The notes: generated by a model from the sequence alone, not told the origin. Shown: positions 4,383 through 30,299, numbered from the stretch's first letter. The stretch: DNA of 64,000 nt from a virus (IMGVR_UViG_3300047470_000343:1-64000), one strand, 5' to 3'. Made by a program: numbers and translations.

Positions 4383-4402
4383 CCCGTCTCGCTCGTGACG
4401 GG
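4383..4402 (-). promoter_or_regulatory. ACGAGCGA-loop hairpin, copy 1
   Basis: CCCGTC-ACGAGCGA-GACGGG, intergenic. Confidence 0.75.
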
Positions 4403-4445
4403 CCGGGGCCCCGGCCGGAGTGCCGGCCGGGGCGCAGCGGGTGTG

Positions 4446-4745
4446 TCAGTTGTTGTGGGCGGCGACGAGCGCGCGGGCTTCCAGCCGGGCGTCGGCCCAG
4501 TCCCGTATGAGGGCGGCCCCGGCGTTACCCGCGGCTTCTCCGGCCGGTGCGCCGGACTCCAGCGCGGCCAGGAAGCGCCGCGCGGTCACCTCCAGCACGG
4601 ACGGGAGGGTGAACACGGCCACCAGGTCTTCAAGGGACAGGTGGGGCCATTCCTCGTGCAGGGCGCGGGCGGCCAACCCGACGATCCGGCCGACGTCTTC
4701 GCCGAGTTTCTGGGCCTGCTGTGCGGTGAGTGGAGCGGAGTACAT
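4446..4745 (-). CDS. hypothetical protein
   Basis: MYSAPLTAQQ start with GAAGG RBS. Confidence 0.65.
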   Translation of the reverse strand: MYSAPLTAQQAQKLGEDVGRIVGLAARALHEEWPHLSLEDLVAVFTLPSVLEVTARRFLAALESGAPAGEAAGNAGAALIRDWADARLEARALVAAHNN

Positions 4746-4818
4746 CGTGGGGCCTTCCGGTCGGTGCAGAGGGGAACGGGGAGCGCCCCGGCCGGAATGC
4801 AGGCCGGGGCGCAGGGGG

Positions 4819-5775
4819 CTACTGGCGGAAGGCCACGTTCTCGATGAACTCGATGGCGTTCTCCGTGTCCTCGAAGAGGTCCACCGGCGTCTCCCCGTCG
4901 CCGCTGATGAACACGGGGGCGCAGGTGGGCGGTACGAACTCGCCGTTGGCGTCCTTGCGGAAGATGCTCCAGCCGGTGTGTTCGTCCACGGGGTGGAACA
5001 GGGAGTGGGAGCGGTCGGCGATCTCCAGCGTTCCGGTGCCGCCGATGCGGTCGAGGTCGACGACCAGGAGCTCACCCCACGTCGGGTCGGCTTCCACGTG
5101 GAAGGGGATTCCGCGGGCGGCGAGGGTGGCGCCGAGGATGGCGCCCGGCCGGGAGTCGGGCAGGAAGTTGGCGATGGCTGCGGCGGCGGCCGCCGAGTCG
5201 GTGAGGCAGTCGACGCGCTCTGTGCCGTTGCCCGAGGAGTACAGCGGCCTGAGACCGTCGACGGGCGCGCCGTCGCCGTCGTAGAGGGCGATCACCCAAC
5301 CGGTGTGCTCTTCGGGGGCGTGCTCGGTCATCGGGGCGCGGTCCGCGATGAACAGGGCGTGCCCGTGGATGGTGAGCGGGACGGCGTAGGCGTACTCGTG
5401 GCGCTCGGGCTCGATGCCGTGGATGGTCAGCGCGGCGAGCAGCACCGTTCCGGCGGTCTTCGGCGCCGGGGTGTCGTCCTTGAGGGCGGCGACGGCTTCG
5501 GCGTAGGGCAGGATGCCCGCCTTCCGCGCGGCCTTGTCGATGCGGGCTTCGAGCTCGGCGGCGATGCGCTTGCCGAGGAAGCTGAGGACGAACCAGTTGA
5601 AGCCGCCGCGCCGGTTGCGGACTTCGCGGAGCAGCTTCTTCGAGTACAGGGCGTCAAGGGTGCGCCGGTGGACCGCGTACGGCACGCGGCCGTCGACGGC
5701 GGCGGCGGTCGAGAGGACCGCGTCACGCTGCTTGGGCGTCATGCCCGTGATGATCTTTGCGAGGTACGCGCTCAT
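4819..5775 (-). CDS. hypothetical protein with tandem duplicated ~100-aa domain
   Basis: Two copies of IADR..H..EHTGW....D..G......SG.G...VD. Confidence 0.8.
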   Translation of the reverse strand: MSAYLAKIITGMTPKQRDAVLSTAAAVDGRVPYAVHRRTLDALYSKKLLREVRNRRGGFNWFVLSFLGKRIAAELEARIDKAARKAGILPYAEAVAALKDDTPAPKTAGTVLLAALTIHGIEPERHEYAYAVPLTIHGHALFIADRAPMTEHAPEEHTGWVIALYDGDGAPVDGLRPLYSSGNGTERVDCLTDSAAAAAAIANFLPDSRPGAILGATLAARGIPFHVEADPTWGELLVVDLDRIGGTGTLEIADRSHSLFHPVDEHTGWSIFRKDANGEFVPPTCAPVFISGDGETPVDLFEDTENAIEFIENVAFRQ

Positions 5776-5815
5776 GGCGTGCCCTTTCTGATGGTTCGGA
5801 GCGGTTTTACCGGCC

Positions 5816-5861
5816 GCCTCGCTCGTGGCTTCCGATATGAGAACTGTACTCCATATCAACA
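5816..5861 (-). promoter_or_regulatory. early leader: TGTTGATATGG box, TACAGT -10-like hexamer, ACGAGCGA hairpin copy 2
   Basis: Aligns with the leaders at 8860 and 13470. Confidence 0.75.
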
Positions 5862-5901
5862 GACGGGGGGAGGGGTACGCCGCGATCTCTGCAACAGATC
5901 G

Positions 5902-6492
5902 TCAGCGGACGCGCCCCCGCGCCCACTCCAGTACCTCGGCGCGCCGATCCGCCACAAGCGGCCACCGGTGCGCCCCGAGCGCGGCCCCGCCATCCCCCGG
6001 CGCCGGATACCGGTGCACCGTCAGCGTTCCCCCGGGGAACACCTCGCACGGCTCGGAGATCTCGAACACCACCCGGGCCCGTCCGATGCGCCGTACCCAC
6101 GCGTACGACACGGCCCCGTGCTCCGGCACCTTGAACCGGGCCGGACCGATGCGCAGCCGGTAGCGGTCACAGGCGGAGACGACCGCGGGATGCCCGTGCT
6201 CGCCCGCCCAATGCCCGCACCGTCCGCACTCCGCCGTCCGCGGCGGCCGCGGGCACGGAGCGGCGAGCAGCACCCGGCGGCCGGCGGGCGGGTACTCCAG
6301 GCGCACCGCACCGTCCGGCGCCCGCACTTCCGTACGCCCGCCCGTACGGGACACCACCGCCACCAGGGCGCGCACCGCAGCCCGGGACACCGGCACGGCC
6401 CGCTCGGGCTCCCACGCGGCAGACAGGCCGTACGCGTCGCGGTCGACGTCCAGCGGCCCGGCCATGGGGCGATCAGGGGCAGCGGCAGTCAC
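5902..6492 (-). CDS. hypothetical protein with CxxC-H putative metal site
   Basis: CGRCGHWAGEH; GAAGGA RBS. Confidence 0.55.
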   Translation of the reverse strand: MTAAAPDRPMAGPLDVDRDAYGLSAAWEPERAVPVSRAAVRALVAVVSRTGGRTEVRAPDGAVRLEYPPAGRRVLLAAPCPRPPRTAECGRCGHWAGEHGHPAVVSACDRYRLRIGPARFKVPEHGAVSYAWVRRIGRARVVFEISEPCEVFPGGTLTVHRYPAPGDGGAALGAHRWPLVADRRAEVLEWARGRVR

Positions 6493-6563
6493 AGAACCAT
6501 CCTTCCGGAACACGGGAACGCCCCGCCCGTGCGCAGGGCACGACCGGGGCGCAGCGGGCGCGT

Positions 6564-7067
6564 TCAGCGCAGGGCACGGCGCGGAGTCCGCGGTACCCGG
6601 GCGACCACCCGGGCGGCCGCGGTGACGGGCGCAGCCGCGGTGACGGGCGCAGCCTCCGGCACGGGGGCGGGCTTCTCCTCGCGCGGCGCGTACCGGGAGA
6701 GGATCCGCTCTATCGCGGCCGCGGCCGTCCGGTCCTTGGAGTGCAAGTCACGCTCCCACCAAGCGGGCAGCGGCATCCCGCGCCGCTTCTCGTACTCCCC
6801 CAGGTAACCGAGGTCGCCCCACTCCGCACCGTCCGGGTAGTGCGTCCAGCACACCCAGCCGTACGCGTTCAGCTCCGCGTCGAGCTCCGTGACGACCAGA
6901 TGCCCCCACGGGGAGAAGTAGACGACGCACGGCGCCTTCTCCGGGGCCGGGCGCTCCTCCTTCGGCATCAGCTTCCGCAGCACGGCACTGCCCGGGAAGA
7001 AGGCGTGACCGCGCAACCGGCGCTGTGTCTCGAACAGCGGCCAACTCGACTCGGGGTGGAAGCGCAT
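6564..7067 (-). CDS. DUF2958-like protein
   Basis: YFSP..VTELD..YGWV..EWG..L.E..ERDLH pattern. Confidence 0.65.
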   Translation of the reverse strand: MRFHPESSWPLFETQRRLRGHAFFPGSAVLRKLMPKEERPAPEKAPCVVYFSPWGHLVVTELDAELNAYGWVCWTHYPDGAEWGDLGYLGEYEKRRGMPLPAWWERDLHSKDRTAAAAIERILSRYAPREEKPAPVPEAAPVTAAAPVTAAARVVARVPRTPRRALR

Positions 7068-7122
7068 GGGGTTCTCCATTCGGTGGCAGACAGCCGGCCC
7101 GGGGCGCAGCAGGGCGCCCGGG

Positions 7123-7338
7123 TCAGTCGTCGTCGAGTTCTGCGGTGTAGTTGGACTCAGCGCGCGCCAGGACCGCGAGGCCGCTTGCGGGGGCCTCCGT
7201 GTCGGCAAGGTGCGCGAGATCGGCGATCAGATCGGCGATGTCGTCGCCATGGCGCTCCCCGTACAGCTCCCACGCTGCTCGGGCGCGCTCGCCGCGCGAC
7301 TGGGGACTGTCGTTCACGTCCCGGGCGATGTCGTCCAT
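7123..7338 (-). CDS. small hypothetical protein (DLIADLAHLAD motif)
   Basis: GGAGG RBS; resembles the N-terminus of 2930-3898. Confidence 0.65.
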   Translation of the reverse strand: MDDIARDVNDSPQSRGERARAAWELYGERHGDDIADLIADLAHLADTEAPASGLAVLARAESNYTAELDDD

Positions 7339-7442
7339 GGGGGTTCCCTCCGTCGTACGGGCCCGGCGGGCGCCGGGGGCGGAGGGATGATGCAGGGGCG
7401 CGACGGTCAGCGTCGCGCCCCCGGGCCGGCGGTCGGGCGCAG

Positions 7443-8391: not shown

Positions 8392-8670
8392 CTACTTCGC
8401 GTTGTCGCGGAGCCACTTGCAGGCGGGCTTGAACCCCTGCTCGCAGTCGTCGGCCTTCGCGTCGACCCATCCGTCGTTGTAGTCGGTGACCGGGTCGTGG
8501 CGCTCGACCGTGCTCGTCACCGTCGGGCGGGGCGCGCCGCCGTCGTCGGAGAAGGCGGCCGAGATGGACGCGCAGAGTGCGAGTGCGGTGATGGCGACGA
8601 TCAGCGCGGCCGTGCAGATGGCTTCCACGCGCTGCTTGATCTGCTGGGCGCGGCTACGGGTGCGGTTCAT
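8392..8670 (-). CDS. small membrane-anchored protein
   Basis: TM segment ICTAALIVAITALALCASI. Confidence 0.6.
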   Translation of the reverse strand: MNRTRSRAQQIKQRVEAICTAALIVAITALALCASISAAFSDDGGAPRPTVTSTVERHDPVTDYNDGWVDAKADDCEQGFKPACKWLRDNAK

Positions 8671-8714
8671 CACGGTTCGACTCTCTTTCGGTCGTTTGGG
8701 AGCGGACCGGAACG

Positions 8715-8793
8715 GCTCTGCTCGCTCGTGCAGCGCCGTCCCGGCATACCTAATCGTAGTTGCCCCATAGGCCAACTGACAACCACATCAACA
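8715..8793 (-). promoter_or_regulatory. leftward early leader: TGTTGATGTGG box and ACGAGCGA hairpin copy 3
   Basis: GCGCTGC-ACGAGCGA-GCAGAGC at 8715-8736; box at 8783-8793. Confidence 0.7.
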
Positions 8794-8859: not shown

Positions 8860-8948
8860 TGTTGATGTGGGGTACGTTTCTTCATGTCGAAAGGCACGAG
8901 CGAGCCGGACGACACCGCTCCCGAACACCCACCAGGAAGGGGCCCACC
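8860..8948 (+). promoter_or_regulatory. rightward early leader: TGTTGATGTGG box, TACGTT, ACGAGCGA hairpin copy 4
   Basis: GGC-ACGAGCGA-GCC at 8893-8906; ~90-nt similarity to the 13470 and 5861 leaders. Confidence 0.75.
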
Positions 8949-9200
8949 ATGGCCGCCGTCACCCTCGCGAAGCGCACCCCGTACGTCGTCATCACCACCG
9001 ACTCCGGCGACGTTCTCGCCGTAGAGCCCCGACTCGCCAACCCCCTGGACCGCGAGGCGCAGTTCATCGACGCGTTCGTGCACTGCCTGAACCTGCGCGA
9101 GGTCGACGCCACCAGCCCCGCCGACGCCGAAGCCCAGGTACGCGCCGCACTCGACGCCGAAGCCCGCGGCATGACGTCCATCCCGCTCGACCGGATCTGA
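8949..9200 (+). CDS. hypothetical protein
   Basis: GGAAGGGG RBS, ATG. Confidence 0.65.
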   Translation: MAAVTLAKRTPYVVITTDSGDVLAVEPRLANPLDREAQFIDAFVHCLNLREVDATSPADAEAQVRAALDAEARGMTSIPLDRI

Positions 9201-13469: not shown

Positions 13470-13557
13470 TGTTGATGTGGCGTACGCTTTTCACGTTGGC
13501 AGTCACGAGCGAGACGGCCGACGAAACGCTCCCGAACACGACCAGAAGGGGCACCCC
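13470..13557 (+). promoter_or_regulatory. early leader: TGTTGATGTGG box, TACGCT, ACGAGCGA hairpin copy 5
   Basis: GCAGTC-ACGAGCGA-GACGGC at 13499-13518. Confidence 0.75.
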
Positions 13558-14346
13558 ATGCCCGCAACGCTGCCCGGCGCGCGCATGTCCGCCGCCGCAG
13601 TCCTCCTCACCGCCCGACCGTTCCTCGGCAACGGCTGGCAGGCCTACCCCGCCCCCGACGGACAGTTCCGGGGGAGCCTTCGCTCCCACCGCGGACACGT
13701 CGTCACCTTCGACGGCGCCGCGGGCCGCATGGTGTTCGCTACCGCGCTCCTCCCCGACGGCACCCGCGTCCCGTACGCGGGCCAGGCCGCCGCCGAGACG
13801 GTCACCGCGTACGCCGAAGCCCTCGCGGACATCATCCGCACCACCCTCGCGCCGCTCCACGCCTCGCACTGCCGCGTGCACCAGGTGCTCCCCGAGCTCA
13901 GTGCAGCGCTCGGCCGCCGGCCGCACCGCACGGTGTGGGACCACGGCGCCGCCTACACGTCATGGACGCTGCCCGGCGGTGGCCGTGCCCGCGCGCAGTT
14001 CCACAACCCCGCCCGGCTCGCCAGGCACGCCGGAGCGAGCGCGTCCGTCTCCTTCGCCGACCCGACCGCCGAGGAAGCCGCGTCCGTCGTCCGGGCCATC
14101 GACACGACCAACGCCGACCCCCGCCAGTACGACACCGTCCACGGCCGCCTCGCGCACCTGCTGAAGGTCGCCGGTCCCGGACTGCGCCCCCTCGACGGCC
14201 CCGACGGGCTCACCGCCGCTCTCACGGTCGACGGGCTGCTCACCGTCGAGTTCGCCTACGCCGCCGGGTTCTCCGAGGCATGGGTGAGCCGCGTGACCGT
14301 CCACGGCTCCCTGCGCAACGTCCTCGCCGCCGCCCGCGCCATCTGA
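13558..14346 (+). CDS. hypothetical protein
   Basis: GAAGGGG RBS, ATG. Confidence 0.7.
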   Translation: MPATLPGARMSAAAVLLTARPFLGNGWQAYPAPDGQFRGSLRSHRGHVVTFDGAAGRMVFATALLPDGTRVPYAGQAAAETVTAYAEALADIIRTTLAPLHASHCRVHQVLPELSAALGRRPHRTVWDHGAAYTSWTLPGGGRARAQFHNPARLARHAGASASVSFADPTAEEAASVVRAIDTTNADPRQYDTVHGRLAHLLKVAGPGLRPLDGPDGLTAALTVDGLLTVEFAYAAGFSEAWVSRVTVHGSLRNVLAAARAI

Positions 14347-14432
14347 CCCACCTCCCTGGCATGCCGCCGCCCGGCCGGCTGCGCGCACCGTGCAGCCGCG
14401 CCCGGCCCTTCCCTCGAAACGGAGTCCCCGCC

Positions 14433-15428
14433 ATGACGACGCCCAACATCCTCGCCGCCCAAGCCACTCAGGCATCCATCACCGTGAAGCGGCGCCCCCT
14501 GCTGGCCGAGCTCCTCGAACTCGGGGAGCGGCTGACCAAGGCCAGCGAAGAGCGCGTGACCGCGACGCACACCGCGAACCGGGCCCGCGGTCTCCTCGAC
14601 AACGCCACGGCGCAGATGCGCGAGCACCAGGCGATGCTGCCCATGCTCCCCGCCGACCCGCGCCGCAACGAGCGGATCGCAGGCGAAGCGGTGGTGGTGG
14701 AGACCCTGCGCCAGGCACACCTCGACGCGCGGGCCCTGGCCGCCGCCACGGCCGTCGTGGAGGAAGCGCTCGCCATGGAAGTGGACTGGTGCAGGCAGCG
14801 CATCCTCAACCTGCACCGCCCCGGGACCGCCTCCCATGGCGAAGCCGTGCGCGTCACCGGCCGGGCGGAAGAGTTCGTGGTCGCCGCCGCCTACAGCGTG
14901 ACCCACTGGAGCGGTGGCGCGGAGAAGGGCACCCGTCACCTGACGCAGCGCAAGGCGGTCGGTCTGGTCGATGCGTGGCAGCGGACGGGGGCGCCGGTGC
15001 TGCGCGACGCCGTCGGCGGTCTGTTCATCGAGCCGGACGGACAGGTGATCGAGCTGCGGCCCGTCACCGCTCCGGCCGTGCGGCATGAGGCGCGCCCGCT
15101 GATGGCCGCGCTCGGCGTCTACGGCTGGAAGGCCTTCATCGACCACTGCAACGGCCGCTCCTTCCTCGCCGTGGCGCTCGACCCGGCCACGCCGGAAGCC
15201 GAGACGTACTCGGGCCCGTACCTGACGATCCAGTCCGGCCAGCACGCGACCCGGCTCGTCCAGGCCCATGACGAGCCGTGGACGCTCACCCCGTTCGACG
15301 CCGACGGCGCCAGCGGTGAGCCGCTGTACACCGGCGACCCGGGCCTGAGTCTCGCCGCGGACTCCGCAGCGTGCGCCCGCGCGGCCGCCGAGTACGCAGC
15401 GGCGGGGGACCGAGGACGGCCGAACTAA
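14433..15428 (+). CDS. hypothetical protein: N-terminal coiled coil, C-terminal shared domain
   Basis: GGAG RBS; C-terminal H..W....DADG...PLY....ADSAA. Confidence 0.75.
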   Translation: MTTPNILAAQATQASITVKRRPLLAELLELGERLTKASEERVTATHTANRARGLLDNATAQMREHQAMLPMLPADPRRNERIAGEAVVVETLRQAHLDARALAAATAVVEEALAMEVDWCRQRILNLHRPGTASHGEAVRVTGRAEEFVVAAAYSVTHWSGGAEKGTRHLTQRKAVGLVDAWQRTGAPVLRDAVGGLFIEPDGQVIELRPVTAPAVRHEARPLMAALGVYGWKAFIDHCNGRSFLAVALDPATPEAETYSGPYLTIQSGQHATRLVQAHDEPWTLTPFDADGASGEPLYTGDPGLSLAADSAACARAAAEYAAAGDRGRPN

Positions 15429-15451
15429 CTAACCGACTGGTCAGTAATAAA

Positions 15452-15483
15452 CAGCGGCCCCGGACTTTGGTCCGGGGCTGTTG
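15452..15483. terminator. GC-rich hairpin, probable terminator
   Basis: GCCCCGGAC-TTTG-GTCCGGGGC after the last gene of the array. Confidence 0.55.
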
Positions 15484-15717
15484 ACGTGGGGTTCGATCAA
15501 ACGCCAGACGCAGCAACGGTGTACGCGCGTAGAGCCCCTGTGAGCTCCGGTTTGAGTGACCTACGCACCCGTAACTAACGTTGACACTAGAGATCCGGCG
15601 GGGAAAGATCTCGGACAGTGGCGCAATGATCACGGGCCGAATCGGCATTTCGGACTCTGGTTTGGTGCCTCAAACACCTCCACATCTCCACCGTTCCACT
15701 TTCATGGAGGGCGCCGA

Positions 15718-16182
15718 ATGACCACCTTCCCGGATATGTCAGCAGCGCGGGACCGTCCCGCCTCCTGGCTCCACCTGCCGGACAAGGCCGCACTGAACGG
15801 CCTCGGTGTGACCCACCGCAGCCGGATCGCCGTGGCCGCCACCGCCGAGGCTCCGATGAAGGCCCGGACCGTAGCCCGCTCCGTGATGTCCCTCATGCTC
15901 GGAGCATCGGAAGCCTCCGCCGCGGTGAACAGGCAGGTACAGGCGTGCGTCTCCGAGCTCGCCGCCATCGCCTACACCCGGGCCGTCGGCTCGCATCTGC
16001 TGTGCGAACTGTGGCGCGACAGTGACCACGTCTTCGTGGCCGTGCAGCACGACGAGCCGCTCCCCCTGCTCCCCGACGACACCACGATCGGCCTGAACGT
16101 CGTGAAGGCCCTCGCCGACGACTACGGCTCCCACATGGTCGACGGCATGTCCCAGATGTGGGCAGCGATCCGGCTCCGCTGA
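15718..16182 (+). CDS. RsbW/HATPase_c-like protein with degenerate ATP-binding boxes
   Basis: AR..VSELAAIA..VAV..GLNVVKALADDYG..MWA matches the Streptomyces ATP-binding (anti-sigma) protein layout. Confidence 0.7.
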   Translation: MTTFPDMSAARDRPASWLHLPDKAALNGLGVTHRSRIAVAATAEAPMKARTVARSVMSLMLGASEASAAVNRQVQACVSELAAIAYTRAVGSHLLCELWRDSDHVFVAVQHDEPLPLLPDDTTIGLNVVKALADDYGSHMVDGMSQMWAAIRLR

Positions 16183-18273: not shown

Positions 18274-18837
18274 TCACCGGCCCTTGCCCTTGCGGGCGGT
18301 GAACTTGTCGCTTGCCTGCTCGGCCTGGTACTCGGCGACGTGCTGCTCGGGCAAGTAGGCGACGGGCAGGCCGGTCTCGTTGTCGCAGATCGCCCAGGGC
18401 AGCAGCTTGCCGTCGTACCGCTGGTCGTCCTGCGGGCGGAACTGTGTGCCGTAGCGGGCGGGCGGCCGTCGGCGGTCGGAGAGGGGGCCCACCGACCGGA
18501 ACAGTCGGCTGATGCGCCGCTCCGTGTCGGGGGAGGCGGTCTCTTCCGCCGGGTCGCCCGCCGGGGCGGCCTCCGGGAGCGGTGGGGCCGGCCACTGGTT
18601 GGTGTCGATGCCGACCTTCCTCAGTTCCGCCAGCGGGGTGTGGGTGCTGCGCGCCAGGAGGTAGGTGTTCTGTTCCTCGCGCGTGCCCGCCTGCCGGTGC
18701 CCGAGCGAGACGTGCAGGGCCTGGAGATCCCCGCGGAGCCGCTCGGCGGTCGTGTGGTCGTCGTTGTACAGCGCGGCGAACAGGCGGTTGACCATGTCGG
18801 TCCGGTACTGGGCTATCGAGTGCTCGTCCACAGCCAC
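18274..18837 (-). CDS. hypothetical protein
   Basis: 187-aa ORF with AAGGA RBS. Confidence 0.65.
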   Translation of the reverse strand: MAVDEHSIAQYRTDMVNRLFAALYNDDHTTAERLRGDLQALHVSLGHRQAGTREEQNTYLLARSTHTPLAELRKVGIDTNQWPAPPLPEAAPAGDPAEETASPDTERRISRLFRSVGPLSDRRRPPARYGTQFRPQDDQRYDGKLLPWAICDNETGLPVAYLPEQHVAEYQAEQASDKFTARKGKGR

Positions 18838-18916: not shown

Positions 18917-19147
18917 TCACACCGCTACCTGGAGGCGCTGGGCCGGGAGCGGGTGGAGGCGGACGCGCTTGTAGCGGAGTTGGCCCTCGACGCGGCACAC
19001 CGTGATGGAGCCCCTCCGGCGGCCGGCGCGCAGCAGCTTGTCGGCTTCCCGGAGCGGCAGGCCGATGTGGCGGGCACTGTCCTCGGCGTCGAGCCAGGTT
19101 TCCCACGGAAGTCGGTTGATGCGCTGCGCCACGTTGTCAGCGTTCAT
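18917..19147 (-). CDS. small putative winged-HTH nucleic-acid-binding protein
   Basis: WLDAEDSARHIGLPLREADKLLRAG..basic wing. Confidence 0.55.
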   Translation of the reverse strand: MNADNVAQRINRLPWETWLDAEDSARHIGLPLREADKLLRAGRRRGSITVCRVEGQLRYKRVRLHPLPAQRLQVAV

Positions 19148-19177
19148 GGCATTGGCCCCCTTTCTTCTCCTGGTTGT

Positions 19178-19236
19178 GCCGGTTCGCTCGTACCGGCTCA
19201 GGGGTTGCGTGCCCACAGTAATGCACTCCACGTCAA
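19178..19236 (-). promoter_or_regulatory. leader with TTGACGTGGAGTGC box and ACGAGCGA hairpin copy 6
   Basis: GCCGGT-ACGAGCGA-ACCGGC at 19178-19197. Confidence 0.75.
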
Positions 19237-19548
19237 TCGCTAAGAGAAAGTGCCGATTGTTCGACCTGTCGACCGGTTTGGACGTAGGACGTGTGAACAC
19301 GCTGGAAACGTCTTGTCTCAACTTGGTAACTTTCCGGCCACCCCTCTGGCCCGAAATGATAAACGCCTTGGGCGACTTGCCCGGAATGCCTGACGGCTAA
19401 TCAGGACACATAAGACGACAGTTATTCACTTCTCCACCCACCCATCTCGTAGCTTTTCGATTATCTGTTCGAGTCAGTAGTACTCTAGCGCCACACCACT
19501 GACGGAAGATGGCCCTCAAGCAGCAACGACAGGGGAGCGGGGGAGCGG

Positions 19549-20265
19549 ATGAGCGACGCAAGAAGCGCGAGCTCGCGGCAGCCCGAAAGTGGCGCCGCAG
19601 CACATCCGCTGGAGGAGGCCGCCGCCCAGGCCGCGGCCAATCCCAGTGACAAAGCCGCTCTCGCCGAGCTCTTCAACGCGCTTTATGAGCCGGTCGTCCG
19701 CTACATGCAGGCCCGCGTCTACGACCCGTGCCTTGCGGAAGACCTGGCGCAGGACGTGTTCGTGAAGCTCGTGCAGGGCATCGGCCGCTACACCGGCGGC
19801 GGCATCTACGGATGGGTGTGGGCGATAGCCCGCAGCACCGCGGCGGACCACTTCCGCCCGATGCGCAATCGTGGCTACGAGACGCCCACCGGCGAGATCT
19901 GGCAACTCGACGCCCCGAGCGCCGACATGGGCCCGGAAGAACTCGCCGAATGGGCGGACCTTCGGGTGGCAATCAACAGAAAGCTCTCCAAACTCCCCGA
20001 CGATCAGCAAGAAGTGTTGCGACTGCGCCTGATCGCCGGACTCTCTACCGCCGAGGTCGCTGAGGTAATGGCGAAGCCTGCGGGTACCATTCGCGTATTG
20101 CAGTGCCGCGCCCTTGCGAAGCTGCGGAAGCTGATGCCGGAAGGCAACAGTTCCATGGCTTCACTCCTGCTCTCGGCTACAGACCCGCAGCAGGAACAGG
20201 CTTTGATGAATGCGGCGCCAGTGGTCGTGACGGTGAGGGAGATTAGGCATGCTGAGTCGCGATAG
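19549..20265 (+). CDS. ECF RNA polymerase sigma factor, BldN/SigD-like
   Basis: Region 2 AEDLAQDVF..WVWAIAR..ADHFR; region 4 LPDDQQEVLRLR..GLSTAEVAEVM..GTIRVLQCRAL. Confidence 0.9.
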   Translation: MSDARSASSRQPESGAAAHPLEEAAAQAAANPSDKAALAELFNALYEPVVRYMQARVYDPCLAEDLAQDVFVKLVQGIGRYTGGGIYGWVWAIARSTAADHFRPMRNRGYETPTGEIWQLDAPSADMGPEELAEWADLRVAINRKLSKLPDDQQEVLRLRLIAGLSTAEVAEVMAKPAGTIRVLQCRALAKLRKLMPEGNSSMASLLLSATDPQQEQALMNAAPVVVTVREIRHAESR

Positions 20266-20635
20266 TGGCCACGCCGCGGAGCGCCTTGACCGATGCCTGT
20301 CGGGCGACGCAGTCCCACACGACGCGGACACCCGCAACGCGGTGACGCTCGCCCGGCTGCTCATGCCGAAGCGCCCCATCAGCCAGGCCGCCCGCGACCA
20401 CGCCTTCGAGGCGATGATGCGTGAGGCGGACCGCGTCGGCCGCACCCCCTCGAACACCGAAGCCGCCCCCGCGGATGTTGTTGACCCTGGGGTCAACATT
20501 CGAACTGCGAGCGCCGGCCACGGGCTCACCCTGCGCGTCGCCGACATCGAACACGTCGACGACGCGCGTATGGAGGAGATCGCCGCCCGGGTCGCGGAGC
20601 GCCTCGGGCAGAGAGCACCGGATCGGAACCCGTGA
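20249..20635 (+). CDS. hypothetical protein coupled to the sigma gene
   Basis: Overlaps the sigma stop and the next start. Confidence 0.65.
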   Translation: MLSRDSGHAAERLDRCLSGDAVPHDADTRNAVTLARLLMPKRPISQAARDHAFEAMMREADRVGRTPSNTEAAPADVVDPGVNIRTASAGHGLTLRVADIEHVDDARMEEIAARVAERLGQRAPDRNP

Positions 20636-22311
20636 GCGGACTGCAAGAACTGCGGGTTCTCCAGGAGGACATGGGCTCGGACGCCGTCACGTTCGAGAAC
20701 ACCCAAGAGGGCGTCACCTACCTGTTCATCAACCCGAACCAGAGCTTTGAGTCCGCAGTCAAAAGCGTGATGAGGGCCTGCCCTGACCTCACCCTCACCG
20801 AGGTCCAGGAGCTCATCCGCAAGCACTGCCACGACATCGTCGAGATGAACGCACGGATGGGCGCCGCTCAGCAGCCCATCCCGCGCTTCGACACCCCCTA
20901 TGACCTCGCCCCGGTCCCGGCAGAGGACAAGGGAGCGCACCGGCGGCCCCGGCCGCCCAGGTGGGCCCGTATCGCCGCCGTCGCCGCCCCGGCCCTGGTC
21001 GGCGGCACGCTGATCGCCCACTTCTTCAGCCCCGCCGGGGACAACGCCCAGGGCGGCTCCGGCAACGGCATCACCGTCAGCCAGCAGGACACGGCCAGCG
21101 TCTTCGACGACCCCACGTACAAGCAGTTCGTGGCCGACGGCAGCCTGCGCTGCCAGCCGCTCGGACAGTACGCGGCCAAGTGCGTCGACGAGGACGGCCA
21201 GATCATGCTCTCCGAGGCGAGCGTGGGCGACTCCGCCGTGTTCACGTTCTCCTACGACGACGAGAAGATCGGCTTCCGAGTCTTCGAGGACGCCTCGGAC
21301 GCCAAGCTCTGGTACTCCGAGGACGGCAACCGCCGGCTCTACGACAACATGAAGATCGTCGGCCGGGTTGTGCTCTGGGGCACGGACACCAAGCGCGTAC
21401 GCGACTGGGGCAACGCCCTTGCCACGCAGTCCTCCAACCAGTCTTCCGTCATGGGACACCAGATCCCGCAGAGCGCACTCAGCGCCCTTCCCCCGCGCCT
21501 GGCCGTGCTCGCCTTGGGCACCCTCGGCATTGGTGACACGAGCAAGGTCAAAGCGCCCGCCGGGTCCATCCATGCGGCGCAGACCCTGCGCGCGGTGGAA
21601 TTGGTCATGGGCCTCGCCGAGGACGATGACGGCCGCGGTTACAGGAACGTTCCTGCGGGCCCCAGTGACGCGGTTGCCGTCGCGGCGGATGCGCCCCGGC
21701 CGCCGGTGTGGGGTGCGGGCAACGGTGTCGGCCCGAGCGCTGTCGCCAGCCCGTCACCGGTGACCGACCCGGTGAGTACGGCCACGGCCCCGGCTCCCGA
21801 GCCTCAGCCTCCGGCCGCTGCCTCTCCGGCGCCTGAGCCCCCGGCGTCCACCGCGCCGACGGCTCCGGCAGCCCCTCCGCCCGCGACCGCACCCCCGGCG
21901 AGCACGACACCGTCCGCCCCCGCGTCGGCGCCGCCCGCGAGCGTGAGATCGGAACCCCCGGCGGACATCACCACCACCACGCTGCCGCCGGCCGACGCGA
22001 CGACTCCGCCGGTAGCGGTGAGCGAACCGGCCCCCGCGCCGTCGGAGCCCGCGGCGCCGACGCCGGTGCAGCCGGTGGCGGATGCCCCGCAGCAGGACCC
22101 CGTGCCGGTGGCCCCGGCTTCGGGCGAACTGGCTCCCGTCGACCAGGCGCCCGCCGATCCGGCGCCCGTCGAGTCCATCGAGTCGGTTCCTGCCGATCCG
22201 GCGGCGACCGAACCGGCCGAGGAGACACCGGCACCGTCCGACGCAGCCGAGGAGGACGGGGGCAGCGACGACCTGCTCATCCTGGACTCCTCATGGACAG
22301 TCGGAGCCTGA
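20632..22311 (+). CDS. single-pass membrane protein with Pro/Ala-rich tail, candidate anti-sigma factor
   Basis: TM IAAVAAPALVGGTLIAHFF, extracytoplasmic domain, PA-rich C-terminus; same operon as sigma. Confidence 0.6.
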   Translation: MSGLQELRVLQEDMGSDAVTFENTQEGVTYLFINPNQSFESAVKSVMRACPDLTLTEVQELIRKHCHDIVEMNARMGAAQQPIPRFDTPYDLAPVPAEDKGAHRRPRPPRWARIAAVAAPALVGGTLIAHFFSPAGDNAQGGSGNGITVSQQDTASVFDDPTYKQFVADGSLRCQPLGQYAAKCVDEDGQIMLSEASVGDSAVFTFSYDDEKIGFRVFEDASDAKLWYSEDGNRRLYDNMKIVGRVVLWGTDTKRVRDWGNALATQSSNQSSVMGHQIPQSALSALPPRLAVLALGTLGIGDTSKVKAPAGSIHAAQTLRAVELVMGLAEDDDGRGYRNVPAGPSDAVAVAADAPRPPVWGAGNGVGPSAVASPSPVTDPVSTATAPAPEPQPPAAASPAPEPPASTAPTAPAAPPPATAPPASTTPSAPASAPPASVRSEPPADITTTTLPPADATTPPVAVSEPAPAPSEPAAPTPVQPVADAPQQDPVPVAPASGELAPVDQAPADPAPVESIESVPADPAATEPAEETPAPSDAAEEDGGSDDLLILDSSWTVGA

Positions 22312-22368: not shown

Positions 22369-22866
22369 TCAGAAAGGCGGCTCGTCGCCGTACGCGGCGG
22401 GCGTGCCCGCCGCACCCGTCCGGGCGGGCGCGCCGCCCGTGGCCCACGGGTCGTCGGCGGGCGGTCCCGACTGCTGACGCTGCTGGCTCTGGCCGCCGCC
22501 CCCAGACGTCTTGGTCACCTTCGCCGTGGCGTTCTTCAGGCTCGCGCCGACCTCCTCGACGTCCAGCTCGTACACGGTGCGCTTGACGCCCTCGCGGTCC
22601 TCGTACGAGCGCTGCTTGAGCCGTCCCTGAACGATGACGCGCATGCCGCGCTGGAGTGACTCCGCGGCGTTCTCCGCGGCTTGACGCCACACCGAGCAGG
22701 TCAGGAACAGGCTGTCGCCGTCCTTCCACTCGTTGGTCTGCCGGTCGAAGGTCCGCGGAGTCGACGCGATACGGAACTTGGCCACCGCGGCGCCGGACGG
22801 GGTGAAGCGGAGTTCTGGGTCGTCGACCAGGTTGCCGACGACGGTTATGACGGTCTCGCCTGCCAC
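22369..22866 (-). CDS. ssb: single-stranded DNA-binding protein
   Basis: [30 protein letters not shown], typical actinobacterial SSB. Confidence 0.97.
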
Positions 22867-22921
22867 AGGTGGGCCTTTCGAGGATGGCGGCCGGCCCGCG
22901 GATGCGGACCGGCCGGGTTGG

Positions 22922-23863
22922 TCAGGAGAACAGCAGCTTCCACGTGGCCGGGCCGGGGATGCCGTCCGCGTCGCCCTTCAGCGAGGCGTGCGCGAGCTGG
23001 AACGCCTTGGTGGCCTTCCGGTCGGACTCCGTCCACTTCGGGCCGGGGCCCGAACTGTAGTACTTGCCGTACCCCTTCTTCGTGAGCTGCCTGCCCAGCG
23101 CGGTGACGTGCACGTTCTTCTTGCCCGGCCCGAAGTACTGGCGGCCGGGGAACGGCGGCGCGGGCTTCGGGACGATCTTCGGGAAGTGCACGGGCGGAGT
23201 CGTCGGCTTGCTCGCCGTGTCGTCGCCCTTGGCCAGGGCGACGATCGTCTTGGCCTTCGCGAGGATCTTCCCGAACGGGATGCTGCCCGGGTCGCCGTGC
23301 CAGTTCTCGGGGGCGTGCATGTGCCCGCAGATGCCGGAGAACTTGTTCCACTCGGCGTACGACATGCGCACGCTGGTCGCGCCGTACGAGGACGGATAGG
23401 GCAGCCACTTGTCCGGCCCGGTGAGCGGGATGCCTTCGTTGAGGTGAAGCCAGGCGATGACCTCGGCCAGCTCGTCGTACGCCCACTCAGGGGCGTCCGG
23501 CCAGTAGATGTAATCCACCCCGGCCTTGAGCTTGCCCCACGACGTCTTGTGCGCCGGGTCGCAGGTGCCCACGAGCTCCAGTTGGATCACGTTCAGGGTG
23601 TTGGTCTCGACGCCGCCGCTCGCGTTCACCAGGGCCCGCGCGGAGCGGTTCAGCGCGAAGTGCTGGTACATCTCCAGCTTCTCCATGCTGATGAGCGGCA
23701 GGCCGGTCAGGTTCGGGGCTTCGGCTCCGTTGCTGTAGGAGACGACGCCCGTCCCCTCCGTCGTGTGCAGACACAGAACGTTGGGATCCATGAGGGATCC
23801 CTCGTACGTGTCGCCGTACCAGTGCGTGCCGCGTATCGCGCCGGGATACAGGGTGGTCGTCAT
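22922..23863 (-). CDS. endolysin: N-acetylmuramoyl-L-alanine amidase plus peptidoglycan-binding domain
   Basis: [27 protein letters not shown]; C-terminal [14 protein letters not shown]. Confidence 0.9.
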
Positions 23864-24535: not shown

Positions 24536-24561
24536 GGCGCGGACCGTAGATGATCACCTGG

Positions 24562-25483: not shown

Positions 25484-25539
25484 GTTGACCTGGTGTACGT
25501 TTGCCCGGTGTAGCTGTACGAGCGAACAGCCGCACCGGG
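25484..25539 (+). promoter_or_regulatory. replication-operon leader: TTGACCTGGTGTACGTT box and ACGAGCGA hairpin copy 7
   Basis: CCCGGTG-TA-GCTGT-ACGAGCGA-ACAGC-CG-CACCGGG. Confidence 0.75.
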
Positions 25540-25653
25540 TCTGTTGTAACGAATTCCGGCCTCACTCCGTCCATAGGGCGAGAGATCAACCGGCGGCAGA
25601 CCCCCAGCTCCAAAGCCGGTACGACACCGGCACGCCAGAAGGGGATGACCTGC

Positions 25654-26229
25654 ATGTCCGAGGAAACGTCGAGCGGCGCGTCCGAGCAGACGCCGCCCGA
25701 GCCGACCCCCCAGGAACTCGCGCTGCGCGCCGCCTTGGCGTACCGCGTGATGGCCTGGTGGGAAGCCATGTGTGGCCCGATCATCAAGACCAACGCCGAG
25801 CGGATCCGGGACACCCCCGGAATGCTGACCACCCTGGCCGAGGTCGACGGCGCCCGGGTTGCGACGTTCACCGAGAGCAAGAGGCGCCCGTTCTTCGAGA
25901 TCACCGACCGGGACAAGTTCTTTGACTGGGCGGACGAGCAGGGCGAGACCGAGTGGGTCATCCGCAAGTCCTTCGAGAACGCGATCCTCAAGAAGCGTGC
26001 CCGGTGGAACGCGGCGACCGGTGAAGCGGTCGACTCCATCACCGGCGAGGTGATCCCCGGCGTGGTCCAGAACCCGGGCGGGGCGCACATCTCCGTACTG
26101 CCCACGTTCACGGACGCCGGGGCGGAACTCCTCGACAACGCCCTGAACGCCATCTTCGGGCAGGCTGCTGCCGCCCTGCCGATGCTCGGCGCGGCCCCGG
26201 CCGCCGAGGACGCGGAGGCCGGCGCATGA
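25654..26229 (+). CDS. phage hypothetical protein
   Basis: First gene of the replication operon; VDSITGEVIPGV motif common in phage recombination-region proteins. Confidence 0.65.
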   Translation: MSEETSSGASEQTPPEPTPQELALRAALAYRVMAWWEAMCGPIIKTNAERIRDTPGMLTTLAEVDGARVATFTESKRRPFFEITDRDKFFDWADEQGETEWVIRKSFENAILKKRARWNAATGEAVDSITGEVIPGVVQNPGGAHISVLPTFTDAGAELLDNALNAIFGQAAAALPMLGAAPAAEDAEAGA

Positions 26230-26519
26230 GCACGGCACCCAACTTCCGCTTCGCGCCCTGCGCCACCGTCGACCCCGAGGCCATGTTCCCGCTCCCGACG
26301 GACGAGGACGGCGTCGCCGCAGCCAAGCGGATATGCGGAGACTGCGACTTCCGCGCCCAGTGCCTGGAGTGGGCCCTGTCGCCCACCACCCGGGCCAACG
26401 AGGGCGTGTTCGGCGGCGCGTCGGAGAACGAGCGGCGCCGGATGAAGCGCGGCCGCAAGGTCCCGTACCGGATCGGCCCCATGCCCTCGAAGCAGCAGCG
26501 CCACGCCATCGACGCATGA
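26226..26519 (+). CDS. WhiB-family (Wbl) transcription factor
   Basis: C..DPEAMFP..AKRICGDC..QCLEWAL..GVFGG..ERR. Confidence 0.92.
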   Translation: MSTAPNFRFAPCATVDPEAMFPLPTDEDGVAAAKRICGDCDFRAQCLEWALSPTTRANEGVFGGASENERRRMKRGRKVPYRIGPMPSKQQRHAIDA

Positions 26520-26584: not shown

Positions 26585-26908
26585 GTGATCTCTCCAGACC
26601 TTCGCCTGCGGCTGATCGACCAGGCCACCGACCAACTGGGCGCCGAGCTCAGTCAGACCACGCTGGCCCTGTACGTGCGCCACCTGCGCCGCACCGACCT
26701 CGACGTCACCGAGTGGCACCGCTGCGCCGACCTCGCCGAGTCCGGCCAGTGCAGCCACCACCAAGCGCGCGTTGCTGCCGCCCAACTCGTCCGCGCCGGA
26801 CTGCTGGAGCGCACCAACGTCCCGCGCCGCGTCCGCGGGCAAGACGGCCGCTACACCGCCTACCGGCTCGTCCTGCCCGCCCACGGTCAAGAAGGAGCGG
26901 CGCTGTGA
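26585..26908 (+). CDS. HTH-like hypothetical protein
   Basis: AQLVRAGLLER..R.QDGRY..Y pattern. Confidence 0.55.
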   Translation: MISPDLRLRLIDQATDQLGAELSQTTLALYVRHLRRTDLDVTEWHRCADLAESGQCSHHQARVAAAQLVRAGLLERTNVPRRVRGQDGRYTAYRLVLPAHGQEGAAL

Positions 26909-27963: not shown

Positions 27964-27974
27964 GTGAGACGAGA

Positions 27975-28802
27975 ATGGAGCCGGACGACATGGCGATGAT
28001 GGCGACTGCGCCCGACGTGGACATCGCAGGCATGGCCCCCGTGGGCGGCAGCATCGGGAAGTTGGCCGCCATCCTGCAACGGAGGGGCTTGGACCCCGCC
28101 GCGGCACGCTTCACCGAGGACCGGCCCGACGACACCGACGAGTACCAGACGCAGGTGTACCGGCAGGCATGGGAGAACTCCCTGCGCCGCTCCGAGCACC
28201 ACGACTACCTGCGCTACCAACTCGCCAACCTCGAAGAGGACGAGCGGGAATTCCTCCAGACGTACGTCGACCAGCACGTCGCCGTACGGAAGATGCAGCG
28301 GCAGCAGAACAAGCTGCCGCCGGAGGAGCGTCAGCACCTGCGCCCCAACATCCTCAACGTGATCCTTGCCGGAAGCGTGGGGGCGGGGAAGACGGTCGCG
28401 GCCGCGGCCGCCGCCCGGTACGCCGTCGACAACGGCCTGATGGCCCGGTTCGTGCCGCACACCCTCTATCTGGACTGGCTGCGCCCGGACCGTGCCCCGT
28501 CGGGGATGACGGCGCTCAGCGTGGTCGAGTTCTACGAGCGGTGCGACCTCCTCGTACTGGACGACCTGGGGCACGAGATGGAGCAGTACGCCACCAACCA
28601 CGTGCGCACCAAGACGTCCGAGCTGATCACCGCGCGGATCAACTCCAACCGGCCGACCCTGTTCACCACGAACCTGACGTCGGAACAGATCACTGAAGTC
28701 CTCGGCGACGCGCTGTTCTCCCGGATCGGGATGCGCGCCGAGGTCTGGGAGATGACCGGAGTCGACCGCAGGCAGCCGAAACAGTGGGGCAAACGCCGCT
28801 AA
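27975..28802 (+). CDS. DnaC/IstB-like helicase loader ATPase
   Basis: Walker A GSVGAGKT, Walker B LLVLDDLG, RPTLFTTNL, SRI. Confidence 0.88.
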   Translation: MEPDDMAMMATAPDVDIAGMAPVGGSIGKLAAILQRRGLDPAAARFTEDRPDDTDEYQTQVYRQAWENSLRRSEHHDYLRYQLANLEEDEREFLQTYVDQHVAVRKMQRQQNKLPPEERQHLRPNILNVILAGSVGAGKTVAAAAAARYAVDNGLMARFVPHTLYLDWLRPDRAPSGMTALSVVEFYERCDLLVLDDLGHEMEQYATNHVRTKTSELITARINSNRPTLFTTNLTSEQITEVLGDALFSRIGMRAEVWEMTGVDRRQPKQWGKRR

Positions 28803-28870
28803 CCGCGCTGGTAGCGGAATGGATCGGTGACGCGGGGCCGCGGGTGATCTACCCTGGGCGATTGCACCGG

Positions 28871-28890
28871 GCGCTCACGAGCGAGGGCGC
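28871..28890 (+). promoter_or_regulatory. ACGAGCGA hairpin copy 8
   Basis: GCGCTC-ACGAGCGA-GGGCGC (one G:U pair). Confidence 0.7.
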
Positions 28891-28915
28891 CTGACTGACG
28901 CTCAGGAGGACACCC

Positions 28916-30124
28916 GTGGCCCAGTCGCATACCGTCACGGCGCTACCGCGCCGGGCTCTCGCCAACATGAGCGAGAAGGAACTACGAGCGGCGGAACGCA
29001 CGCTCGCGAACGGCACTTGGGCCATCACCGTCGGGGCGATCGTGCTCAGCATGATCACAGTGACGCCTCTCGTCATGATGGTCACCCCCGACAAGTACGA
29101 CTGGACCGCGCCGATTCTGCCGCTCGTCGTGGACGCCGCCGTGGTCATCGTCATCCGCCTCGACGCGATCATCAGCCGACTCGGTGACACCGGAGGCTTC
29201 TGGCCGGCACTGCTGCGCTGGATGACCGGCGCCATGACCGTGGCCCTGAACGTCGGCCTGTCCTGGCTTCACGGCGACTGGGTCGGCGTCGCCGTGCACT
29301 CGGTCGCCCCACTTCTCCTCATCGTCACGGCCGAGTCCTCGCTCGCCTACCGCCGGGCGATCACGCGCTCCCTCGACCGCATCGCCGGCGAGGCGGAGAA
29401 GGCAGCCGAGAAGAAGCGCGCCGACGCCAACGCCGCCGCAGAGAAGCAGCGCGTGGAGCGCGAGCGGGAAGACGACCGCCAGGAAGCCAAGGCCCAGGCT
29501 ATCCGCGAGCGAGCCGAGAAGCAGGAGCAGGACCGCCAGGAGGGCGAGGAGCGGCGGCTCCGCGAAGAGCGCGAGTACGAGCGGCAGATGGAGCAGGACC
29601 GGGCGGACCGCGAGGAGCGGCAGAAGCAGCAGGAGCGTGACCACCTTCTCCGGCTGGAGCAGGAGCGCACCGCCCGGGACGCCGCCGCGCGCCAGGCCGA
29701 ACAGGCGAGGGAGGAGCGCGAGCGCAAGGAGGCCGCTGCCGCTGCTGCTCGCGCGGCCGCGGAGAAGGCGGTGTCTCGCCAGCCGGTCACGGTCGCGGCC
29801 GAGTCGGTGAAGCCGCGTCGAGTGGTGATCCGGGACGTGAGCGTGGACGAGTTCCCCGGCCTGGGTGACGACGAGAAGGAAGCTGCGCTGTACGCGATCT
29901 ACCGGCAGGCCCGGGATGAGAGCGCGTACGAGGACTGGGCAGATGACCCGCGCTTCAAGCAGGGTGGCGATCTGAACGGTTCCCAGCTCGGTGTCCGGCT
30001 CGGGCGTACGCCCGCGGCGGGCCGTACCAACGTGAAGCCCAAGTTCGAGCGTTGGTACAAGGAGGAGTTGGAGAGGCGGCAGCAGGAGGCCGGCGTCGAG
30101 GAGAAGGAGCTCGTGTCGGCCTGA
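28916..30124 (+). CDS. DUF2637/SpdB-like membrane protein with coiled coil
   Basis: About 4 TM helices (ILPLVVDAAV, ALNV, HSVAPLLL), then a charged coiled coil. Confidence 0.7.
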   Translation: MAQSHTVTALPRRALANMSEKELRAAERTLANGTWAITVGAIVLSMITVTPLVMMVTPDKYDWTAPILPLVVDAAVVIVIRLDAIISRLGDTGGFWPALLRWMTGAMTVALNVGLSWLHGDWVGVAVHSVAPLLLIVTAESSLAYRRAITRSLDRIAGEAEKAAEKKRADANAAAEKQRVEREREDDRQEAKAQAIRERAEKQEQDRQEGEERRLREEREYERQMEQDRADREERQKQQERDHLLRLEQERTARDAAARQAEQAREERERKEAAAAAARAAAEKAVSRQPVTVAAESVKPRRVVIRDVSVDEFPGLGDDEKEAALYAIYRQARDESAYEDWADDPRFKQGGDLNGSQLGVRLGRTPAAGRTNVKPKFERWYKEELERRQQEAGVEEKELVSA

Positions 30125-30142
30125 CTCTCTCAGTACCAAGTC

Positions 30143-30183
30143 GCGGCGGGCGCCCGGGAGTCACCGGGCGCCCGCCGCTTTTG
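30143..30183 (+). terminator. intrinsic terminator
   Basis: GCGGCGGGCGCCCGG..CCGGGCGCCCGCCGC-TTTT. Confidence 0.75.
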
Positions 30184-30275
30184 TGTGCCCACACCCCTCC
30201 CCCTCGTGACTGTCCACATGTAAACTGTAATCCAGCGCAATGGCGGGGACGTAAGCCCAACCAGCCGCGCAACAT

Positions 30276-30299
30276 GCCCCGGCACGAGCGAGCCGGGGC
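30276..30299 (+). promoter_or_regulatory. ACGAGCGA hairpin copy 9
   Basis: GCCCCGGC-ACGAGCGA-GCCGGGGC. Confidence 0.75.

Follow-up and report, generated by a model that had tools for sequence, protein, structure and literature searches.

A conserved family of GAGC-loop hairpins upstream of the early and replication genes of a Streptomyces phage-plasmid

The early and replication genes of a Streptomyces phage-plasmid are preceded by a family of hairpins which share one loop sequence on arms that differ from copy to copy. We report here that this family is real, conserved and uncatalogued, and that its structure is under selection. The hairpins were analyzed in the first 64,000 nucleotides (referred to as the window) of the IMG/VR virus record IMGVR_UViG_3300047470_000343, which comprises 93,785 bp with about 70% G+C and has a completeness of 69% as estimated by CheckV. 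The record contains genes for head, protease and tail proteins, a ParA-like protein, a replication initiator and an IstB-like loader, as well as for Erf-like and Gam-like proteins, SSB, an ECF-type sigma factor, a WhiB protein and a DarB-like protein of 8,179 amino acids. Relatives of the element were located via the Erf-like protein and the small terminase subunit, and they proved to be elements of about 126–138 kb in Streptomyces, including a named plasmid of S. kronopolitis; the element is therefore assigned as a Streptomyces phage-plasmid. The structural genes are also similar to those of the cultured phage Gilgamesh, at 40–77% amino acid identity.

Hairpin copies in the window

The exact loop sequence ACGAGCGA is present at nine sites in the window. 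The number of these 8-mers by itself is unremarkable, since the expected count is 5.3 ± 2.2 and nine are reached in 9 of 100 shuffled sequences. At least three complementary flanking pairs enclose all nine sites, compared to 2.4% of random positions, and none of the 62 8-mers of the window with one mismatch is surrounded by a stem. The outcome which an earlier note on this DNA had named as refuting, namely that the 8-mer might be just as common without stems or inside coding sequences, did not occur. One further exact ACGAGCGA in the 93.8-kb genome (93293–93300, minus strand) lies within a coding sequence and has no stem. All nine window copies are intergenic and in sense orientation to the next gene, as the earlier note had described at these same places, and they lie 31–48 nt upstream of the start codon, except for those with loops starting at 25518 (119 nt) and 4389 (about 100–140 nt). 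A covariance model, the check proposed at that time, scored the nine copies at 33–48 bits and the next best site at 13.9 bits, with covariation at six of six stem pairs within the window. The arms given in the earlier note were correct in their letters but covered only the inner part of the hairpins, because most stems extend over 9–12 positions and contain an internal A·G or G·A mismatch or a small internal loop at positions 4–6 from the loop. Minimum-energy folding returned the hairpin with its 8-nt loop in eight of the nine leaders. The copies are as follows.

4375–4410 (−): hairpin copy 1, loop 4389–4396, arms CCCGTC/GACGGG; no promoter, directly after a terminator-like GC hairpin at about 4405–4430
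5805–5840 (−): hairpin copy 2, loop 5819–5826, inner arms GCC/GGC, AA/GG internal loop, outer arms CGG/CCG; leads gene 4819–5775
8708–8743 (−): hairpin copy 3, loop 8722–8729, 4 bp, G·A mismatch and 4 bp; leads gene 8392–8673
8882–8917 (+): hairpin copy 4, loop 8896–8903, inner arms GGC/GCC, 3 × 3 internal loop, outer arms GTCG/CGAC; leads gene 8949–9200
13491–13526 (+): hairpin copy 5, loop 13505–13512, 3 bp, A·G mismatch and 5 bp; leads gene 13558–14346
19170–19205 (−): hairpin copy 6, loop 19184–19191, arms GCCGGT/ACCGGC, no CGCTCC; leads the winged-helix gene
25504–25539 (+): hairpin copy 7, loop 25518–25525, arms GCTGT/ACAGC and outer arms CCCGGTG/CACCGGG, no CGCTCC; starts the long structured leader of the Gam-like gene 25645–26229
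28863–28898 (+): hairpin copy 8, loop 28877–28884, arms with a G:U pair; leads the DUF2637-like gene 28916–30124
30270–30305 (+): hairpin copy 9, loop 30284–30291, arms GCCCCGGC/GCCGGGGC; leads the Erf-like gene 30336–31895

The 120-nt leader of the Gam-like gene (25526–25650, plus strand) is strongly structured (z = −3.9), and its core GGTCTGkTGTAACGAATTCCGGCCTCACTCCGTCCATAG is kept in the relatives. The leader closes with a second, degenerate hairpin (GCCGGT-ACGAC-ACCGGC, about 25611–25632), and at this position two of the relatives, G009 and G012, carry an intact hairpin with the loop ACGAGCAA.

Conservation of the family in related elements

Ten further elements carry 4–12 copies each and one fragment carries one or two, which amounts to about 85 intergenic copies in all. 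Aligning 73 distinct 36-nt copies from 11 elements, we found the 10-bp stem to be 81% paired, compared to 52 ± 1.4% after shuffling and 32–43% with slid partners. Changes on both sides were observed at all ten stem pairs, and the number of stem cells with double changes was 186, compared to 68 ± 5.6 in the shuffles. A start codon on the same strand follows downstream of 83 of 87 copies family-wide, at a distance of 25–49 nt from the loop in about 68 of these 83. There is approximately one hairpin per transcription unit, most operon-internal genes lack a copy, and the promoter, hairpin, leader and Shine-Dalgarno sequence are repeated together as one unit.

We then searched five whole host genomes (7.7–10.7 Mb) with the covariance model at E ≤ 0.01, scoring the top 150 candidates per genome. 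All 20 hits were located on the phage-plasmid contig, so in these five genomes the hairpin is confined to the element and absent from the host chromosomes. The statement of the earlier note that this is not a described family held up against Rfam, where no match at gathering score was obtained over the window; even at E ≤ 5 (Rfam 15, nine loci) the only match in the vicinity of a copy was that of the terminator-like stem beside copy 1 to the 3′ end of the sRNA P15. Scanning IMG/VR for CACGAGCGAG-N(6–20)-CGCTCC yielded mostly chance matches: among the matches listed, a structured copy was present at 9 of 117 loci, and the clear family members were L288 (which is the relative G005 itself), L282 and L320.

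One relative, G001, contains three tandem intergenic cassettes on the minus strand at about 14220–15560, which give the impression of duplicated regulatory units. In each of them, the GAGC-loop hairpin follows another repeated hairpin, whose loop is GCACGCC or GCACGCT.

Lineage-wide changes of the loop

The only invariant part of the loop is GAGC, which is flanked by purine-rich positions. The loops found are ACGAGCGA (61 copies), ACGAGCAA (12), AAGAGCGA (8), GCGAGCGA (2–3) and ATGAGCGA (1). All eight structured copies of the relative G004 have the loop AAGAGCGA, which was found in this element alone, and none of its structured copies has ACGAGCGA. Because the copies before the Erf-like, DUF2637-like and winged-helix genes of G004 keep the arms of their orthologues and differ from them at loop position 2, the same change must have been made at several orthologous sites. 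Phage Gilgamesh possesses about ten sense-oriented hairpins with the loop AGAGCA (6 nt, with a range of 6–7 nt) at a similar spacing to the start codon, at least four of which stand behind a GGTGTAC-type box (GGCGTACTGT before gp93). Natural variants thus exist both at loop position 2 (C or A) and in loop length (8 or 6 nt). Since the loop has changed in concert in G004 and Gilgamesh, these patterns point to a sequence-specific reader which co-evolves with the element.

In Gilgamesh, gene 137 (DNA methylase) is annotated to start inside a promoter-plus-hairpin module, at about 118223 of the record. The real start looks like the ATG about 40 nt past the loop, which follows a GAGGAA Shine-Dalgarno sequence.

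Promoter-like sequences before the hairpins

Most copies are preceded by a −10-like hexamer. The following consensus matches were recorded in the window.

8873–8878 (+): −10-like hexamer TACGTT in box TGGnGTACnnTT
5843–5848 (−): equivalent of TACGTT
13483–13488 (+): equivalent of TACGTT
25496–25501 (+): equivalent of TACGTT
19220–19225 (−): equivalent hexamer TGCATT
8753–8758 (−): other −10-like type, TACGAT
28850–28855 (+): other −10-like type
30252–30257 (+): other −10-like type

The box TGGnGTACnnTT with the hexamer TACNNT stands before the copies with loops at 5819, 8896, 13505 and 25518, and a variant of it before 19184. The copy at 8722 follows a canonical sigma-70-type match (TTGTCA-18-TACGAT), and those at 28877 and 30284 follow two other −10-like types which are kept in the relatives. 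Four −10-like promoter types were distinguished, and in the commonest layout the hexamer ends about 5–13 nt before the outermost stem pair. If these sequences are promoters, the hairpin starts at about +1 to +5 of the mRNA, which places it probably at the 5′ end of the message. Copies without such an element directly follow a GC-rich terminator-like hairpin, as observed for the copy at 4389, the three tandem copies of G001 and the copies before an MPR...-type gene in several relatives. GC hairpins without U tracts are also present between early genes (e.g., 4405–4430), and the stem-loop of the family itself has no U tract.

The conserved early box can be written as TTGAY-N5-6-GTACnnTT (TGGnGTACnnT) and is located at 8862–8880, 5841–5860 (−), 13472–13490, 25485–25503 and 19218–19240 (−). 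Its −35-like TTGAY lies 5 nt from the −10-like hexamer, unlike the spacing of sigma-70 promoters. Forms found in the relatives and Gilgamesh are GGACrTGGTGTACAGT and GGTGTACTATT.

The CGCTCC box downstream of the loop

A second short motif, complementary to GAGCG of the loop, follows most of the hairpins at these positions.

8916–8921 (+): CGCTCC box
4371–4376 (−): equivalent box
5798–5803 (−): equivalent box
8699–8704 (−): equivalent box
13527–13532 (+): equivalent box
28899–28904 (+): equivalent box, CGCTCA
30304–30309 (+): equivalent box

Seven of the nine window copies have CGCTC 12–17 nt past the loop, including those at 8916–8920, 28899–28903 and 30304–30308 already reported in the earlier note, while none is present at 19184 and 25518. 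Family-wide, CGCTCC is found 11–17 nt past the loop in 72 of 87 copies. It is missing from five of the eight G004 copies, from all copies leading the winged-helix gene and from all Gilgamesh copies. The earlier note had taken the complementarity as a sign of a two-state switch, an idea that the data did not bear out. Twelve variants with loop G7 changed to A retain an unaltered CGCTCC and thus give no compensatory support for pairing between loop and box, the box is lost in the lineages just named, and the minimum-energy folds keep the main hairpin with an unpaired box in eight of nine leaders, only that at 28877 preferring the pairing of the loop with CGCUC. We therefore treat the hairpin as the core and CGCTCC as an auxiliary element of the clade. 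An H-type pseudoknot was also considered and found unsupported, as the linker of about 2–6 nt after a stem of 9–12 bp would be tight and the near-invariant loop and box show no covariation.

A candidate reader of the loop

The best candidate for a reader is a small basic protein whose own gene is led by hairpin copy 6.

18917–19147 (−): basic winged-helix protein, 76 aa, pI 11.3, candidate reader

The earlier note had already named this gene as coding for a winged helix-turn-helix protein with a copy in its own leader, and structure prediction agrees, giving a confident winged-helix model (pLDDT 87); the protein also has an invariant Arg cluster. The best Foldseek matches, although weak, were to the winged-helix domains of SelB (E 2.5e-3, 28–30% identity), which bind an mRNA hairpin. 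Homologues were present in nine of nine relatives tested and in Gilgamesh (gp93), and a GAGC-loop hairpin without CGCTCC precedes the gene in every leader examined (G000, G001, G004, G011 and Gilgamesh). The 42 clusters of homologues all derive from Streptomyces, mostly from contigs of about 128–138 kb, and the protein family is confined to the clade. Family searches of the other early proteins gave no match to an RNA-binding, N-like or NusG-like signature, and the winged-helix protein is the only small Arg-rich one among the early proteins. For the 187-aa protein co-transcribed with it (18274–18837), a confident partial model was obtained, which had no fold match.

Interpretation of the hairpin and alternative explanations

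The explanation we favor, at a probability of roughly 45%, is that the hairpin is an RNA tag of the 5′ leader and that a factor bound to its loop controls translation initiation and/or 5′-end-dependent stability of the message. Control at this level is preferred because the hairpin is placed at the 5′ end and less than 50 nt from the start codon, at the edge of the ribosome footprint. In this family of Streptomyces phage-plasmids, the hairpin would then act in cis as a stem-loop located at the 5′ terminus of early mRNAs or close to it, labeling every early transcription unit and some internal cistrons as a single regulon. Its stem would need only to pair, whereas the loop would carry GAGC with purine-rich flanks (ACGAGCGA in the element studied here) to be read by a sequence-specific factor evolving with the element. 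This reader would most likely be element-encoded, with the winged-helix protein of 18917–19147 as the best candidate, and its binding would decide the fate of the early messages, so that early genes might be either shut off or protected, be it in the plasmid state or when early expression gives way to late. The second box of the clade, CGCUCC at 11–17 nt past the loop, could pair with GAGCG and may tune access to the loop.

An action as RNA is suggested by the strict sense orientation, the leader position behind four promoter types and arms that need only to pair. In the related sequences, sense stems are also more stable than antisense stems by 0.8 kcal/mol (p = 0.04). The earlier note had likewise proposed a cis-acting RNA element of an early regulon with its own reader; the tie to early genes, the covarying stems and the loop shift speak for this, while the wobble count is neutral on RNA. 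Several points weigh against our explanation. In a test for the strand of folding, stem G·U (38) did not significantly exceed A·C (31), so the excess that normally marks folding of the sense RNA was not seen, and the two strands differ little in stability. The placement at the 5′ end is read from consensus −10 matches alone. For most copies, an occurrence once per transcription unit rather than per cistron suits a role at the transcript level, such as antitermination or stability control, no less than a translational operator. The remaining Foldseek neighbors of the candidate reader are mostly double-stranded DNA binders of the ArsR/SmtB type, and because its family is bound to the clade, its co-occurrence with the motif is not independent evidence.

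The alternative faring best is nut-like processive antitermination, which we nevertheless regard as unlikely. The hairpin would be equivalent to boxB and CGCUCC(C)GAAC to boxA, in rrn-like order with the hairpin leading, and a factor bound to the site would let the polymerase read through the early GC hairpins. There is indeed about one site per early transcription unit directly past the promoter, and GC hairpins without U tracts, which would have to be read through, lie between early genes (as at 4405–4430). Lambda boxA, CGCUCUUA, begins with the same five bases, CGCUC, and GCUCCCGAACAC agrees with the E. coli rrn boxA in length and in its GCUC...AAC frame. The family shares with lambda nut a small leader hairpin with free stem and fixed loop just past early promoters, an adjoining linear box starting with CGCUC and, presumably, the coordination of an early regulon. 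It differs in its loop of 8 nt (6–7 nt in Gilgamesh) instead of a GNRA-like pentaloop in a hairpin of about 15 nt, in stems of 9–12 positions, in the place of the box, which is on the 3′ side of the hairpin and can be missing in some lineages, and in having 9–12 copies per genome rather than two. Given this loop size, assignment to the boxB/nut sites, to which the earlier note had likened the element, is not supported. A boxA is expected to agree with the NusB/NusE site of the host; the boxA-like sequences of the host rrn leader (CGTTCCTTGAGAACTCAACAG and CGTTCCTTGAGAAC) resemble the box only loosely, and the box is missing from the Gilgamesh copies and most G004 copies. Several hairpins lie directly past a terminator-like hairpin, too late for its suppression, and no N-like or NusG-like gene turned up in the family searches of the element's proteins.

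A site acting at the DNA level appears rather improbable. Here, C-ACGAGCGA-G would represent an asymmetric operator or 'stoperator' of 8–10 bp, at which the winged-helix protein as a prophage repressor would block elongation, and the loop variants would mark immunity groups. Dispersed asymmetric operators are known for gp71 of mycobacteriophage L5 and C1 of P1, and like these, the hairpins are numerous asymmetric sites that follow the direction of transcription in a temperate phage or phage-plasmid and have a lineage-dependent sequence. Their predicted position between about +10 and +30 relative to each early promoter, the site change throughout G004 and Gilgamesh, which resembles operator-repressor co-evolution, the preponderance of double-stranded DNA binders among the fold neighbors and the lack of preference for G·U over A·C in the stems all agree with such a model. 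However, the sites of L5 gp71 and P1 C1 are duplexes of 13–17 bp and need no flanking complementarity, whereas the conserved core is short here, with GAGC alone invariant. An operator model shares the orientation bias; it does not predict covarying arms, and it leaves unexplained the strongest feature of the family, arms that are copy-specific yet complementary.

A purely structural role is also distinctly improbable. The hairpin would then serve as a 5′-terminal stabilizer or processing boundary on a portable cassette, and its loop would be kept by descent and recombination, with no reader. Such hairpins are known to stabilize bacterial mRNAs, and as with E. coli ompA and B. subtilis aprE, the predicted arrangement consists of a 5′-proximal hairpin, an unstructured leader and a strong Shine-Dalgarno sequence. 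These stabilizers, which lie about 0–4 nt from the mRNA 5′ end, have no conserved loop and do not occur in multiple copies with a lineage-specific loop. Portability is consistent with the recurring blocks of promoter, hairpin, leader and Shine-Dalgarno sequence and with the tandem cassettes of G001, each with a second repeated hairpin ahead. A precedent exists in the PeSL cassettes of the T4-type phages RB49 and phi1, in which a sigma-70-like early promoter is joined by a stem-loop and a Shine-Dalgarno sequence ahead of many small early genes, in the intergenic gaps of plastic regions (PMC2839356). Both families are repeated intergenic cassettes of this kind and plausible sites of modular shuffling. 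The PeSL stem-loops are terminators with a G-tract and a C-tract at varying positions in or before the promoter (PMC2839356), while the hairpin described here lies past the −10 element and has freely varying arms, an invariant loop and no U tract. Descent by itself does not account for arms that have fully diverged around a GAGC invariant in about 85 copies and in Gilgamesh, for the parallel alteration of the same loop position in orthologous G004 copies, or for the presence of the hairpin behind four unrelated promoter types.

There is only a very slim chance of N4-like promoters, i.e., DNA hairpins extruded for a non-canonical and possibly virion-delivered RNA polymerase: the promoter-less copies directly past terminator-like hairpins, where a promoter is expected, and the 8,179-aa head-region protein with about 4,700 residues lacking a family match would suit them, but no RNA polymerase domain or motif was found in this protein (Pfam, PHROGs, PDB sequence search and DxDGD scan), most copies stand behind −10-like elements at a fixed distance, and the geometry of an 8-nt loop on stems of 9–12 bp differs from the 3-nt loop and 5–7 bp stems of N4, whose hairpins are read by a single-subunit RNA polymerase of the phage. 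That such a polymerase is hidden in the unassigned residues of the DarB-like protein, among the head genes, is equally remote; if it were true, the early genes of an actinobacterial phage-plasmid would be transcribed by machinery that the element itself injects, and the 'promoter-less' copies past terminators would each form a transcription unit complete in itself.

Other repeated sites of actinophages

The SAS and ESAS repeats of Cluster K mycobacteriophages stand in one orientation before start codons (PMC3203893, PMC12699233), and the ESAS consists of conserved 17-bp inverted-repeat arms around a variable spacer, with no compensatory changes (PMC3203893, PMC12699233). They resemble the hairpins as actinophage-specific motifs upstream of a subset of genes, with consensus variants specific to subclusters. 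In its build, our family with its conserved loop and variable arms is the inverse of ESAS, since its arms vary with compensation at ten of ten pairs and its center is conserved. The Streptomyces phage phiC31 likewise has repeated regulatory sites in its early region. The phiC31 repeat is a sequence-conserved palindrome, CCTACTCACGTGAGTAGG, known as CIR, which serves as an operator of the repressor; neither a GAGC-loop hairpin family nor an enrichment of such hairpins was detected in phiC31.

Further features of the element

The record opens with a near-perfect 15-nt inverted repeat, AGTGACGTGACGCGG ... CCGCGTCACGTCACT (1–42), and a G6C10 run is found at the opposite genome end; both may reflect either the ends of the genome or the borders of the assembly. 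Downstream of the DUF2637-like gene and directly ahead of the promoter and hairpin of the Erf-like gene, an all-GC stem of 15 bp runs into TTTT (30143–30178, plus strand); no other canonical intrinsic terminator is present in the early region. The element also encodes an ECF-type sigma factor of its own, WhiB and a protein that matches a PHROG 'transcriptional regulator' family and resembles an anti-sigma kinase, the genes concerned being located at 19549–20265 (+), 20342–22311 (+), 26226–26519 (+) and 15718–16182 (+). The ECF-type sigma gene is followed by two conserved genes coding for 97 and 559 aa, in the same order as gp92–gp90 of Gilgamesh. DNA similarity to Gilgamesh was observed at 22510–23169 (SSB and the C-terminus of the lysin) and not at the winged-helix gene.

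The 8,179-aa protein is encoded by a single open reading frame among the head genes on the minus strand, which covers 62878–64000 of the window and continues to position 87414 of the genome. It contains a DarB-like antirestriction region (methylase and SNF2) and a UvrD-like helicase, whereas no family match exists for about 1,100 residues at the N-terminus and 3,600 at the C-terminus. A search for an RNA polymerase in it returned only the DarB-like methylase, SNF2 and UvrD-type helicase and no convincing DxDGD motif.

Implications

If the hairpin indeed acts as an RNA tag of early leaders, it would provide one directly testable handle on the early regulon of this phage-plasmid family and of the cultured phage Gilgamesh. 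This handle would span about 30 nt, with no more than four fixed bases, all in the loop, and the alternatives of C or A at loop position 2 and of loops of 8 or 6 nt would represent natural specificity variants. For the engineering of Streptomyces, it would also be of practical use to have a portable leader through which expression is tied to a phage factor.

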